A stretch of DNA of 4,321 nucleotides from a virus (IMGVR_UViG_2778261593_000010:1-4321), one strand, 5' to 3'. Positions 1,113-4,321 are shown, numbered from the stretch's first letter. Numbers and translations: made by a program. Notes: generated by a model from the letters alone, not told the origin.

Positions 1113-1659
1113 CGGGGAAGCCATTCTGCTGCGCAACATCACCGTCAGCGCCACCATGCAACTACCGGACAAAGATATGTCCGGACAGTCAACCAGCACC
1201 ACGAGCGCCCAGCAGGGAAGCAAGGCTAAAGAGCTGCGCGTGTCGGGGGTTATTGATTTTAACGATGAAGCTATTCTGACCCGTATTTTTCAGCTTGCGG
1301 AGGCAACAGAAAGCAATGGCGCGAAAAAAACATATCGCATTGCTAACGCTACCGCGAAGGCAATCAATATGCGACAGGGGGTATTTTCTGGTGGCATTGA
1401 TGCCACGGAACAACAGGGAAAAATGCACTGGCAGGTCACCTTTACTCTCAGGGAAAAATTAAGCGTGCCAGAGAAAGCGTCTGCACGTAGCGGTTCGCAG
1501 AAAACCATCGCCAGACAGCAGACCCAGAACGGTAGCGAACAGGCACCAGACAAAGGCATGAATACGCAAAGTTCGTTCTGGAAAAAAATCAATGATGCCG
1601 TTGGCTCTGGTCTGGATGCTGTTGGCATCGGGAGCGTGAAAGAGGAAGGGAAAACATGA
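1084..1659 (+). CDS. Hypothetical protein, 191 aa; possibly a gpU-like tail tube-initiator/tail protein (low-confidence recollection), with a Gln/Ser-rich C-terminal tail
   Basis: Clean ORF with typical codon usage; GGGA upstream of ATG 1084; stop overlaps the next start (ATGA at 1656-1659). The segments LRVSGVIDF, ILTRIFQLAEATESNG and HWQVTFTLREKL resemble, from memory, P2 gpU-family proteins; not verified. Confidence 0.8.
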   Translation: MTQMIVLALDGEAILLRNITVSATMQLPDKDMSGQSTSTTSAQQGSKAKELRVSGVIDFNDEAILTRIFQLAEATESNGAKKTYRIANATAKAINMRQGVFSGGIDATEQQGKMHWQVTFTLREKLSVPEKASARSGSQKTIARQQTQNGSEQAPDKGMNTQSSFWKKINDAVGSGLDAVGIGSVKEEGKT

Positions 1660-3353
1660 AATTGATACAACGCTGCATGATTAATGGCGAACGGGTGGAA
1701 ATTGCCGATATAAGCCTTGTTCTTACCCTGAATGCTGCCGGTCGTGGCTTCATTTCTGTTAACAATCTGTCACCCGAACACAGCCTTGCCGGCGCAATGG
1801 TACAAATTGATCTCGGCCGTGACGGTGAAGCATGGCGCTATTTCTCCGGCTACATTGAGCGCGATCAACCTGCTGAAAATGGCTCACGTCGCCTTTTTAT
1901 TCGTGAAGCGGCTGCTGTGCTGGATTTTGATTTCCCTTGCTCCATGCAACACCCGACGTTGCGGAGGGTACTCGATAATCTGGGGCGACAAAGCGGTATC
2001 GTTTTTATCACTCCGGATGCGGATTATGCCAGTATACCAACTCCCTACATCACCCACAGCGGCAGCGGAGCACAACTGCTCAGCCAACTGGGGCGAGCAT
2101 TCAGTATCAGCGATTACGTCTGGCACCCTATGCCGGACGGTTCTGTATTTGTGGGAAGCGCAGCTGATTCACGATTTGCCAGTATTACAATGCCGGATAT
2201 TCCGCAACAGTACACACTCGGGCAAGGCGGCGGAAACAGCATCGACATCATGTTCATGGAAACTGTGCGACCGGGCGTGAATCTTCCCGCCGGGCGTATT
2301 ACCCGCGTAGCCCTCAACAACGAGAAAATGACTCTGACGTGGGAGCGCCTTACCGTCACGGGCAGCCCTGTCTCCAAATCACCATTACGCAGACAGATGG
2401 AAACACAGTTCCCGGAACTGGCCAGCGGCACACTACACACCAGGCTGGCGCGCGTCATTGCACCAACGGAATCCGCCACCCTGGGCGATGTGGCCGACAG
2501 CTTCCGTCCACGCTACGCCGTGGACGTGCAACTGCTCGATGAGGACGGCAACGATAAAAGCGATACGCCTGTTTACCCGGCAGTCCCACTCCCCGTCCCG
2601 ATGGCTGGTAGCGAGGCGGGATGTTTTGCCTACCCGCCGGCAGGCACCATCGTGGAAATATCTAACATTGAAGGGCGCCCGGATAAACCTGTTATCAGGC
2701 AAATCTTACCCGCTGGCCGTAACCTGCCTGATGTAAAGCCCGGCGAACAACTGCAGCAACAGCGCGCAGAAGTGTTTCAGCGCGTCACGACTGACGGAAG
2801 CTGGCACAGAGAAACAGACCAGCAAATCAGGGAGCAGTCAGCCACCCGCACAATTAACAGTGATGCAGAAGAGCGCACCACAACAACCAGAACAACCACA
2901 GTACGGGCAAACGACATAACCAGTGTTCTGGGAACCAGCAAGCTGGCGGCAGGACAAATAGAGCACCTTACTACCGGCCATTACGCGATCGCAGCCAGCG
3001 AGCATATCCAGATGGTAGCGCAGGATTTGCTGACTAAACTCAAAGGGGCAATATCCACAATTGAGCAGGACCTGACTGAAAACGTGGGAGGCCGCAGAAC
3101 ATGCCGGGCGGACGGCGGTCTGAAGTTTACAGCCCCGACAGTATTTATTGGTCGCGGTGGCTCACGGGAAAAATCCGAACTTAATCTGCTGACGTTGTTG
3201 ATTGATATTCTGGATCTGATTCAATTGCTGGCCACGCACACTGCAAACCATACCCACAGCAACACTGGCGCACCAATGAACAGCGGCGAACTTGCCGCAG
3301 ATGCCCTGCAGGCTACGAGCCTGCGCGAAAAATACGGGGACCTTATCGCCTGA
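1656..3353 (+). CDS. Large hypothetical protein, 565 aa; candidate fused phage baseplate hub/spike-like protein (gpD/gp27/VgrG-like N-terminal region, Thr-rich linker, C-terminal HxH tip motif)
   Basis: A 1698-nt ORF with a strong ribosome-binding site (GAGGAAGGG, 1641-1649) and start coupled to the upstream stop. N-terminal segments (LVLTLNAAGRGF, RYFSGYIERD, RRLFIREAAAVLDF, TLRRVLDNLGRQSGI) resemble the Phage_GPD/VgrG N-domain from memory. The C-terminus has HTANHTHSNTGAP, reminiscent of the HxH apex motif of gpV/gp5-type spikes. No Walker A or obvious nuclease motifs. Confidence 0.85.
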   Translation: MKLIQRCMINGERVEIADISLVLTLNAAGRGFISVNNLSPEHSLAGAMVQIDLGRDGEAWRYFSGYIERDQPAENGSRRLFIREAAAVLDFDFPCSMQHPTLRRVLDNLGRQSGIVFITPDADYASIPTPYITHSGSGAQLLSQLGRAFSISDYVWHPMPDGSVFVGSAADSRFASITMPDIPQQYTLGQGGGNSIDIMFMETVRPGVNLPAGRITRVALNNEKMTLTWERLTVTGSPVSKSPLRRQMETQFPELASGTLHTRLARVIAPTESATLGDVADSFRPRYAVDVQLLDEDGNDKSDTPVYPAVPLPVPMAGSEAGCFAYPPAGTIVEISNIEGRPDKPVIRQILPAGRNLPDVKPGEQLQQQRAEVFQRVTTDGSWHRETDQQIREQSATRTINSDAEERTTTTRTTTVRANDITSVLGTSKLAAGQIEHLTTGHYAIAASEHIQMVAQDLLTKLKGAISTIEQDLTENVGGRRTCRADGGLKFTAPTVFIGRGGSREKSELNLLTLLIDILDLIQLLATHTANHTHSNTGAPMNSGELAADALQATSLREKYGDLIA

Positions 3354-3392
3354 TCACCTGGACATAAAAGCCACATAAACGCCCATCACACA

Positions 3393-3417
3393 ACGCACGG
3401 CTTCGGCCGTGCGTTTT
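3393..3417 (+). terminator. Rho-independent terminator of the plus-strand operon
   Basis: Perfect 9-bp stem ACGCACGGC / GCCGTGCGT (3393-3401 and 3406-3414) with a TTCG tetraloop, followed by a T-run (3414-3417); 40 nt downstream of the stop of the 565-aa gene. Confidence 0.8.
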
Positions 3418-3475
3418 CATATCTGCCACCTGATTAATGCGTTCTGCGCGCCATTCTGGCGCTGTATGCGCACAC

Positions 3476-3514
3476 CGCGTAAACGGTGTGACGTAAAGCG
3501 TGAGGTGACGTAAA
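3476..3514. repeat. Short direct repeats: CGTAAA three times (3478, 3492, 3509), two of them as the 10-mer GTGACGTAAA (3488-3497, 3505-3514)
   Basis: Seen directly in the sequence; spacing 14 and 17 bp; lies in the ORF-free region between the two terminators. Candidate protein-binding iterons or a recombination-site remnant. Confidence 0.4.
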
Positions 3515-3895
3515 CCGCGCTACCCCCTCCAACCCGCGGGTTTTGTGTCGAAACACTTTTTCAGTTTTCTGCCATGCAAAAATGACCGCCAGCCCGCGCA
3601 GCAACTGAGGGAAAAGCGAAGATCTGAAATTTCACGCTTTGAAATTTTTTGCAGTTTTCAGAGGGATTTTTACGATCTCATGAATGGCAGGAGAAAGAAA
3701 ACAGGCTGATATTAAAAGAGTTTTCATACTTTACGTGGGACAAGACGCGATCGCGAAAGGATCGCATCAAAAAATCTTCAAACAACGAAGCCAGACGCGG
3801 CGCGGCCTGCGTAAGATTGAGAGTCAAAATTAAACTGAAAAAAGGATCAATACCGCGCCTCGATCGCACATGACGATCTACGCAGCAACAGGACG

Positions 3896-3917
3896 AAAAA
3901 ACCGGCGCGAACGCCGG
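3896..3917 (-). terminator. Rho-independent terminator on the minus strand
   Basis: On the minus strand: CCGGCG-UUCG-CGCCGG (6-bp all-GC stem, UUCG tetraloop; plus coordinates 3902-3917) followed by six U (plus A-run 3896-3901). On the plus strand the A-run precedes the hairpin, so it terminates only leftward transcription. Confidence 0.7.
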
Positions 3918-3960
3918 CGGAAGCATGTATCAAATGCGTGATTGAATAATGTCTGCGGTC
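3896..3960 (-). ncRNA. Candidate ~65-nt small RNA transcribed leftward, divergent from the hok-like gene
   Basis: Bounded by a predicted minus-strand promoter (-35 TTGAGG, -10 TATAAA) and a minus-strand intrinsic terminator (3896-3917). The interval holds no credible ORF (only a 6-codon ATG frame). Length is similar to Sok-type antitoxin RNAs, but it does not overlap the predicted hok leader. Confidence 0.35.
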
Positions 3961-3966
3961 GGGAAT

Positions 3967-3994
3967 TTTATATCAGAAGGCTGACGGGCCTCAA
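3967..3994 (-). promoter_or_regulatory. Putative sigma70-type promoter for the leftward small RNA
   Basis: Minus strand: -35 TTGAGG (plus 3989-3994), 16-bp spacer, -10 TATAAA (plus 3967-3972). By-eye match only. Confidence 0.35.
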
Positions 3995-3998
3995 CGGA

Positions 3999-4028
3999 TT
4001 GATACAAGGGAAAAAACCAGGCTAGAAT
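3999..4028 (+). promoter_or_regulatory. Putative sigma70-type promoter for the hok-like transcript
   Basis: -35 TTGATA (3999-4004), 18-bp spacer, -10 TAGAAT (4023-4028); predicted start near 4036, giving a ~145-nt leader. Its -35 lies 4 bp from the -35 of the divergent minus-strand promoter. Confidence 0.4.
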
Positions 4029-4078
4029 TCGCGCGGGTGCCTTTCGGCTGATGGCTGGAGGGAATACCTGAAGGCCGG

Positions 4079-4153
4079 ATGTGGAAAGGCCCCGGAAAAC
4101 ACTTTTGTTTAACCGAGGCCCTAACCGTCTACCCTAAGCAAGTGATAGGTTAG
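4079..4153 (+). CDS. Possible 24-codon leader ORF in the hok-like mRNA leader (MWKGPGKHFCLTEALTVYPKQVIG)
   Basis: ATG at 4079 preceded by GAAGG (4070-4074); TAG at 4151-4153; same frame as hok-like gene and ends 27 nt before its ATG. It may be fortuitous. Confidence 0.25.
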   Translation: MWKGPGKHFCLTEALTVYPKQVIG

Positions 4154-4180
4154 CGCCTCCCTGAAAAAGGAGCAAGCGCT

Positions 4181-4321
4181 ATGTCGCAAAAATCGCTTAC
4201 GGCCATCACGTTCTGCGTGACGGCAATCCTCATCATCTGGATGCTGCACGGTTCGCTGTGCGAAATACGGATGAGCTTCTGGGGAGCGGAGTTTGCGGCG
4301 TTCTTACAGTGTAAGCAGTAA
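4181..4321 (+). CDS. hok: Hok/Gef-family type I toxin (small membrane-depolarising peptide), 46 aa, closest by memory to HokA-type paralogs
   Basis: Not in the ORF track (below its size cut-off). ATG 4181 has a ribosome-binding site AAGGAG (4167-4172, 8-nt spacing); TAA at 4319-4321. Product MSQKSLTAITFCVTAILIIWMLHGSLCEIRMSFWGAEFAAFLQCKQ has an N-terminal transmembrane helix followed by the family-defining SLCEIR motif and an E-x-AAF C-terminal segment (compare Hok of plasmid R1: ...[23 protein letters not shown]...). Confidence 0.85.
   Translation: MSQKSLTAITFCVTAILIIWMLHGSLCEIRMSFWGAEFAAFLQCKQ

Follow-up and report, generated by a model that had tools for sequence, protein, structure and literature searches.

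Which function keeps a stretch of DNA without genes conserved behind the last late gene of an Escherichia coli prophage? The segment in question occupies positions 3418-3895 of the window, by which we mean the whole stretch of DNA analysed here (4,321 nt), and it recurs at 80-98.6% identity in 51 of 5,426 complete E. coli genomes, in none of which it is annotated. An initial annotation, made from the window sequence, had read it as phage-related DNA and proposed either a prophage or island boundary with the remnant of an attachment site or a protein-binding regulatory region, leaving room for a structured non-coding RNA. The feature of the segment that stands above chance is its conservation. 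We propose, with high confidence, that positions ~3420-3848 form the cos (DNA-packaging) region of an HP1-like Peduoviridae prophage of E. coli. The segment would most likely mark the ends of virion DNA (cos) rather than an integration junction (att).

Genes and terminators flanking the segment

The source of the window is E. coli, and positions 3300-4321 are 97% identical to five swine ETEC chromosomes. Its left part is the end of a phage late operon, comprising the C-terminal part of a DUF4376 protein, a protein of 237 aa assigned to phrog_1677, a baseplate-complex protein that matches HP1_ORF34 (Pfam, E = 8e-54) and, as the last late gene, a 565-aa orf35-like baseplate protein (1656-3353, plus strand; phrog_2258, E = 2e-230) that is 41% identical to orf35 of phage HP1 by tblastn. 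This tail and baseplate operon closes with a rightward intrinsic terminator (3392-3420, plus strand), made of a perfect 10-bp stem (3392-3401/3406-3415), a 4-nt loop and UUUU, with a folding energy of -18.7 kcal/mol and a z-score of -6.5. A simple consensus terminator scan did not list this hairpin. In relatives the sequence of both stem and loop varies and the hairpin is retained, and a hairpin with a T-run can be read from the sequences of ESSI-2, SW5 and HP1 at the same spot 3' of orf35. On the opposite side, a leftward intrinsic terminator (3918-3901, minus strand, with a T-tail to about 3893) combines a 7-bp stem and U6 (-12.9 kcal/mol). It is nearly invariant: only the STEC313 copy departs, with A in place of C at the outermost base of the stem. 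In SW5, a hairpin resembling a terminator occupies the corresponding place. The segment is therefore bounded as the initial annotation described, by two convergent terminators that each point inward.

Further right, a hok/sok-type toxin cassette forms the first cargo gene (3999-4321, plus strand). It comprises a promoter-like site (3999-4028), an Rfam match to sok (4035-4194) whose 42.6 bits stay under the gathering score of 59, and a Hok coding sequence (4181-4321; Pfam HOK_GEF, E = 4e-07; phrog_251, E = 1e-22). The leftward terminator sits in the spacer of this cassette (3849-3998, minus strand), which is found only beside hok: the piece at about 3850-4025 is confined to the 41 genomes with hok at this position, and is therefore part of the cargo cassette and not of cos. 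An Rfam match to RsmY elsewhere in the window (E = 0.22) falls within a coding region and was set aside as a chance match.

The segment is modular. Its most widely shared part begins near 3505, and homology to loci with other cargo (L004) ends at 3848. In Edwardsiella ictaluri and Edwardsiella anguillarum, the DNA 3' of the orf35-like gene matches ~3508-3809 at 68-70% identity; the orf35-like protein is 60% identical, compared with 68-70% for the DNA of the segment core. A scan of the genome collection for the orf35-like protein returned three loci only. In IMG/VR, 22 viral contigs carry the site, most of them from isolate genomes, and none of the 22 ends at it.

Homology to the genome ends of HP1-like phages

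The HP1 record places cosL at positions 1-9 and attP at 251-694, followed by int, and its right end lies 192 bp past orf35. The cos sites of HP1 and HP2 adjoin attP and not the portal gene (Lavigne et al., 2009; PMC2771037). A tblastn search with the 565-aa protein located an orf35 homologue about 200-400 bp from a record end in the majority of 75 Peduoviridae records, among them HP1, HP2, K139, phiO18P, ESSI-2, SW5, the ESSI2_ev phages and phi3; ESSI-2 and SW5 show the complete HP1-type gene order. The segment has the same position as the cos site of HP1 (Hpunavirus, Peduoviridae), between the orf35 terminator and the attP/int side.

Homology of the segment to these phage ends is detectable by profile only. 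BLASTN of the segment at a "distant" setting gave no match among 50,697 phage records, and the exact cos sequence of the window was absent, again by BLASTN, from every sequenced phage of that collection. We therefore turn to an nhmmer profile that was built from seven prophage copies only and run against four phage genomes rotated with their ends joined. The best match spans the end junction in ESSI-2 (E = 4.4e-22), SW5 (E = 8.9e-16) and ESSI2_ev015 (E = 3.8e-13). In HP1, the best match of this prophage-only profile is not significant (E = 0.94); with the A2 profile, which adds three enterobacterial phages, the best match in the genome falls at +118 to +230 (E = 2.5e-4, with high compositional bias), in the same orientation as the window and co-linear with it. 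The initial view of the segment as phage-related is borne out, and cleavage here in the E. coli lineage would be predicted.

The alignment places the phage record ends at ~3520-3537 of the window, within a cosN-equivalent block (3517-3540; GCGCTACCCCCTCCAACCCGCGGG) that aligns with GCACTACACCGCACCCGC of ESSI-2. The ESSI-2 record runs through AAAAACGGCACTACACCGCACCCGC into the 15-nt sequence CTACACCGCACCCGC, present at both of its ends, and then into CTGCAAGTTTTGGATCGCAAAATTTTTTCAGTTTTG. At the end junction of SW5, GGAAACGGCGCTACACCGC meets GCACCCGCCTGC, the core part being GCGCTACACCGC joined to GCACCCGC. The ev015 record ends in AAAAACGGCGCTAC (with GCGCTAC at the break), followed by Nextera adapter sequence, and restarts with GCACCCGC (as part of GCACCCGCCTGC). 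The three records thus break at slightly different bases of one 25-nt block, these ends being database record ends that may be mapped termini or assembly ends. By this alignment, the putative staggered cut region would lie at about 3520-3537 (CTACCCCCTCCAACCCGC), in a core that reads GACGTAAACCGCGCTACCCCCTCCAACCCGCGGGTTTTGTGTCGAAACACTTTTTCAGTTTTC in the window; the exact nick positions and the polarity of the overhang within it are likewise putative.

ESSI-2 (Seongnamvirus), SW5 and SI7 (Irrigatiovirus) and ESSI2_ev015 (Quadragintavirus) are homologous to the window across the end junction (E = 4e-22 to 4e-13). Their blocks follow one another as in the window for about 350 bp, and in ESSI-2 and ev015 the positions of TTTTTCAG are the same as well. 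These phages differ from the window in that overall identity is low, the core of ESSI-2 is CTACACCGCACCCGC whereas that of the window is CTACCCCCTCCAACCCGC, and the boxes of SW5 are of the TTTTGCAAAA type. HP1 is more distant, with a sequence similarity that is marginal under either profile and a core, and probably an overhang, that differ. Both sites nevertheless have a C-rich core at the cut (TCCTTCCCCACC in HP1, CTACCCCCTCCAACC in the window) and share a layout in which CACGKAAA stands to the left and, inverted, ~205-220 bp to the right, with TTTTTCAG at +31 to +36.

Intact prophages carry the segment together with the machinery that would act on it. RIVM_C037134 and STEC719 encode both terminase subunits as well as scaffold, capsid, sheath, tape measure, baseplate, tail fibres, orf34 and orf35. 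Their gpM is 46-47% identical to that of ESSI-2, SW5 and ev015, and the homologous terminase small subunit of HP1 is 39-40% identical; these identities do not discriminate between the box variants. In the window, the terminase genes would be beyond the reach of its 4.3 kb, and the closest match, K_EC180, is without them. With no head, tail-sheath or terminase genes, K_EC180 is a deletion derivative in which int, C, cox, gpA, ParM/ParR, ogr, tail fibres and orf33-35 remain, so that the site in that host could be a relic.

The same core is also found in smaller elements. In STEC367 and on two IMG/VR contigs, integrative elements of ~12 kb carry it with 61 of 64 positions identical, including a 46-nt perfect run and the whole of block 3517-3540, between flanks that are about 80% identical. 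Their genes specify an integrase, a primase of 895 aa, Ogr/Delta and Hok, and a further ORF resembles a major head protein. A core kept above its flanks is what one would expect of a satellite that relies on the terminase of its helper, and we regard these elements as candidate satellites.

Conserved boxes and competing readings

The conserved module consists of short blocks on both sides of the putative cut. Its left arm (3421-3516) is almost invariant among eight Escherichia copies and contains CGTAAA boxes on the plus strand at 3476-3483 (with one mismatch), 3490-3497 and 3507-3514. To the right of the core, a first box, TTTTTCAGTTTT (3557-3568, plus strand; +31 from the cut region), is invariant in seven of seven aligned prophage copies, Edwardsiella included, and occurs in ESSI-2 and ev015 as well, SW5 having the variant TTTTGCAAAA at this position. 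It is followed by a GC-rich block, CCGCCAGCCCGCGCAGCAACTGAGGG (3586-3611), which is kept in Edwardsiella, ESSI-2, SW5 and ev015 and partly repeats the right half of cosN (3526-3538) as direct repeat D5. Box 2, TTTTGCAGTTTT (3647-3658, plus strand; +120), lies within the conserved block AGATCTGAAATTTCACGCTTTGAAATTTTTTGCAGTTTT (3620-3658). The block GATATTAAAAGAGTTTTCATACTTTACGTG (3708-3737), kept in Edwardsiella, ends in an inverted CACGTAAA box (3730-3737, minus strand; +205), and the block AGCCAGACGCGGCGCGGCCTGCG (3789-3811) contains GGCGCGGCC, which is kept in the prophages, ESSI-2 and SW5. An inverted TTTTTCAGTTT as box 3, then GGATC (3831-3848, minus strand; +309), form the right edge of the module. 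Its conserved blocks thus read CACGTAAACCGCGCTACCCCCTCCAACCCGCGGGTTTTG; TTTTTCAGTTTT, twice direct and once inverted; AGATCTGAAATTTCACGCTTTGAAATTTTTTGCAGTTTT; GATATTAAAAG through to TTTTCATACTTTACGTG; GGCGCGGCC; and AAACTGAAAAAAGGATC.

The positions of these boxes, counted relative to the cut site, are similar across the phages. CACGKAAA lies at -35, -18 and, inverted, +205 in the window (coordinates 3491, 3508 and 3730), at -21 and, inverted, +206 in SW5, and in HP1, as six ACGKAAA matches, at -108, -44, -31, -14 and, inverted, +16 and +220; ESSI-2 and ev015 have none. Boxes of TTTTTCAG are found at +31, +120 and +309 (inverted) in the window, at +39, +140 and +320 (inverted) in ESSI-2, at +32 and +133 in ev015, and at +36 in HP1, SW5 having TTTTGCAAAA-type boxes instead. 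Between the window and HP1, SW5, ESSI-2 or ev015, the positions of the two kinds of box agree within about 20 bp. In HP1 itself, five of the nine CACGKAAA boxes of the genome fall within -200 to +400 of cos (0.08 expected, P = 2e-8). This conserved geometry ties the window to HP1, the one relative with annotated cohesive ends. Conserved boxes in both orientations with fixed spacing are the pattern of a DNA site, and the earlier suggestion of a protein-binding region is probably right.

If the segment works as a cos site, terminase (the gpM small and gpP large subunit homologues) would assemble during lytic growth on the repeated boxes around it, for which the candidates are CACGTAAA on the left and inverted at +205, and TTTTTCAGTTTT at +31, +120 and, inverted, +309; which protein contacts which box is a prediction. 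Terminase would then nick the C-rich core GCGCTACCCCCTCCAACCCGC (about 3520-3537) in a staggered way and package DNA from there. After injection, the cohesive ends would anneal and be ligated, restoring the core sequence. In the integrated state, cos would stand between the orf35-like terminator and the variable cargo from 3849, here hok with its own leftward terminator.

The symmetric elements that first drew attention to the segment are all present, namely AACCCGCGGGTT, TGAAATTTCA (3625-3634) and CGCGATCGCG (3746-3755), as seen by sequence inspection, with the correction that AACCCGCGGGTT lies at 3531-3542, one base to the right of where it had been placed. They are not the conserved units, because the symmetry is broken in relatives: AACCCGCGGGTT is disrupted in two of eight Escherichia copies (RIVM_C037134 and ECL27977), and the Edwardsiella counterpart of TGAAATTTCA has lost its palindromy. 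The segment also contains a cluster of seven GATC (Dam) sites (3621-3878), where the composition elsewhere in the window would predict 0.85 (Poisson P = 3e-5, post-hoc). The enrichment in relatives is 2-6 fold and mostly borderline (P = 0.001-0.22), and the candidate satellite L002 has zero GATC. Because the cluster, though strong in the window, weakens in relatives and is missing from the candidate satellite copy, a role for Dam is only possible. These phages also encode adenine methyltransferases of their own.

The part of the module that invites another reading is its right arm (3560-3848), which could be an element separate from cos, whether a regulatory or nucleoid-protein site, a recombination hotspot or a Dam switch. 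Right of the core, the module extends for ~330 bp, more than a cos site should require, and some of this length may have a different use; the GATC sites cluster there, the junction with the cargo falls exactly on its right edge at 3848, and the candidate satellites conserve the core far better than the arm. However, the arm is kept whatever the cargo and is present in ESSI-2, SW5 and HP1, all of which are without hok. It carries the same TTTTTCAG and CACGKAAA boxes as occur beside the cut site, at conserved distances, and the candidate satellite copy is without any GATC. We accordingly regard a right arm independent of cos as improbable.

A structured non-coding RNA or small RNA gene within the segment is, in our estimate, very improbable. 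The region is conserved and non-coding, and its fold z-scores are mildly negative (-2.05 on the plus strand and -1.61 on the minus strand). Yet the covariance-model scan that the initial annotation had recommended gave no Rfam 15 match in 3418-3895 at E up to 1, no promoter-like site was found inside the segment, and the covariation term of RNAalifold is unfavourable (+1.09), with double changes in 4 of 47 pairs. Both flanking terminators point into the segment, and its short boxes in two orientations at fixed spacing are what a DNA site would present. Just outside, about 3895-3960 could give rise to a minus-strand RNA of 66 nt that stops at the leftward terminator; the promoter-like site of this candidate (3994-3965, minus strand) is not conserved in the MB07081, ECL27977 and STEC313 variants.

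The reading as an att-site remnant, or as a prophage or island boundary, has little left to recommend it and is barely credible. It draws on the segment being non-coding, repeat-rich and near the right end of the prophage, and on HP1, where attP is only 250 bp from cos, which makes cos and att neighbours in this phage group. But when related genomes are aligned, as had been suggested, the insertion junction falls outside the segment: the order of features in K_EC180, RIVM_C037134 and STEC719 is segment, hok, accessory genes, chromosome, and 1.3-1.7 kb, holding hok plus between one and three other accessory genes, separate the segment from the chromosomal genes raiA (K_EC180 and RIVM_C037134) or flk (STEC719). 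In the intact prophages, attR comes after these cargo genes. The same segment occurs at different chromosomal insertion sites, and it aligns with the ends of virion genome records and not with int-adjacent sequence. A tRNA/tmRNA scan of the window found no tRNA gene, tRNA fragment or tmRNA gene. HP1 and the E. coli prophages thus differ in what lies between cos and attP (250 bp compared with 1.3-1.7 kb of cargo genes), and with attP further right, cos would be inside the integrated element.

Coding potential is slight, in agreement with the initial view. The plus-strand ORF at 3649-3873 and the minus-strand ORF at 3678-3926 exist, as do others at 3545-3709 (plus), 3684-3833 (plus, 49 aa) and 3434-3604 (minus, 56 aa), but the four longest of those overlapping the segment (all except 3684-3833) have no match in Pfam or PHROGs, and in relatives of 84-93% identity stops or frameshifts interrupt the four located entirely or for the most part to the right of the cut site. 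That a short protein is encoded, for example by the 56-aa ORF, has next to no chance of being right: this frame is open in five Escherichia copies and without a stop across the 30 codons alignable in Edwardsiella, but it stays open because the DNA itself is near-invariant, it starts with TTG and matches no family, it would span the cut site, nearly every substitution in it is non-synonymous (10 of 12 nucleotide differences change the amino acid in the three closest copies, L001, L005 and L018), and relative to Edwardsiella the aligned translations are ~60% identical, with DNA at 76%.

Known packaging sites and a proposed cos-adjacent cargo hotspot

The predicted cos region can be compared with other packaging sites. 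In the cos site of phage lambda (cosQ-cosN-cosB), repeated binding boxes of either orientation surround a core that is nicked. The window follows the same logic, whereas the sequences and the terminase small subunit are unrelated, and the IHF consensus WATCARNNNNTTR has no match inside the segment. Phages P2 and 186 and the satellite P4, whose cos site was reportedly described by Ziermann and Calendar in 1990, belong to the same phage family and have the same terminase type as the HP1-like prophages, and in both settings a cos sequence is common to helpers and small satellites, or candidate satellites here. In P2, cos is flanked by old/gpA and the portal gene Q, whereas that of the window comes after the tail and baseplate genes. 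The conserved 19-nt cohesive-end core of the P2 type (GGCGAGGCGGGGAAAGCAC in P2) and its conserved flanks provided no link to the window: neither profile search nor local alignment against joined P2 ends gave significant similarity, and a resemblance between GGAGGGGGTAGCGC and GGCGGGGAAAGCAC was supported by neither.

A further parallel concerns GATC sites. Phage P1 packages by headful, without cos, and cleavage at its pac site reportedly depends on Dam methylation (Sternberg and Coulby, 1990). As in P1 pac, a GATC cluster lies beside the packaging cut site in the window, but here GATC is not part of a repeated hexamer, and the cluster is weak in relatives and missing from the candidate satellite copy. 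We may speculate that the ~330-bp right arm, with its three TTTTTCAG boxes, its inverted CACGTAAA and its seven GATC sites, acts as a Dam-sensitive packaging switch like P1 pac, or as a recombination substrate for exchange of cargo at a cos-adjacent hotspot, or as both, such exchange being common to HP1-like helpers and the undescribed ~12-kb candidate satellites with an identical cos core. We hold this to be unlikely.

Variation of the cargo is directly visible. To the right of 3848, the genes differ by genome and include hok, a YafO toxin-antitoxin pair and an ATP-dependent nuclease. A variable accessory-gene hotspot directly beside cos is thus a feature that the window has in common with P2, 186 and P4; variable-gene hotspots beside cos were described in P2 and P4 (Rousset et al., 2022; PMC9122126). 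In HP1-type phages, the border 3848/3849 would be the left border of such a hotspot, which would extend the P2/P4 picture to a second genome layout.

These findings give a name to an 830-bp unannotated gap carried by roughly 1% of complete E. coli genomes, and point to the likely genome ends of HP1-like coliphage prophages, a group without a sequenced phage representative. The geometry of the boxes, kept from Haemophilus to Escherichia, makes them candidate terminase-binding sites, and the small integrative elements that have the same cos core may be satellites of these phages.

The hok/sok-type cassette and its neighborhood

The first cargo gene next to cos, the inferred DNA-packaging site, belongs to a hok/sok-type toxin-antitoxin cassette (window 3999-4321). 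The cassette carries a promoter-like site (3999-4028), a sok match (4035-4194) whose 42.6 bits stay under the Rfam gathering threshold (59), as well as a Hok/Gef coding sequence of 46 aa (4181-4321); close copies are found in P88-like and Stx phages. In other genomes, the place of hok is occupied by a YafO-family toxin paired with a gene labelled "SufA" (L003 6274-7433; L004 6554-9504); L004 has an ATP-dependent nuclease there as well. The name "SufA" seems to have been given in error to an antitoxin.

On the minus strand, a 66-nt transcript (3893-3958) is possible: a promoter-like site (3994-3965, TTGAGG-18-TAAAAT) would start it and the leftward intrinsic terminator would end it. Positions 3895-3960 are kept in 41/41 E. 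coli genomes with hok at this cos-adjacent position, and conservation of the promoter-like region is lost in three divergent copies.

Observations on phage genomes

The RefSeq entry of phage ESSI2_ev015 (NC_049395) includes, within positions 1-48, the reverse complement of the Illumina Nextera adapter CTGTCTCTTATACACATCT; these 48 nt are contamination joined to the physical genome end. Phage ESSI-2 carries a LexA-box-like palindrome, CTGT-N8-ACAG (28407-28422), immediately past its cos-proximal conserved region.

At the left end of the window, positions 1-326, the end of a DUF4376/tail-fibre gene, are 99% identical to phage phiP27 (41852-42177). This similarity suggests that unrelated phages have recently exchanged tail-fibre modules.

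Related elements and candidate satellites

Among its relatives, the window comes closest to a P2/HP1-like element in the pheA-raiA interval of E. coli K_EC180. This element retains int, C, cox, gpA, ParM/ParR, ogr, tail-fibre genes and orf33-35, together with cos, hok and a Com/methyltransferase pair; head, sheath and terminase genes are absent. Either deletions gave rise to it, or it depends on a helper.

We also describe integrative elements of ~12 kb at three loci (L002 5437-11681; L025, where the element spans the entire 11,987-nt contig; and L039), which encode an integrase, an 895-aa primase, Ogr/Delta and hok, as well as a major-head-protein-like ORF (phrog_70). Their cos core is that of the window, with 61 of 64 positions identical. 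We propose these ~12-kb elements as candidate satellites of these HP1-like phages.
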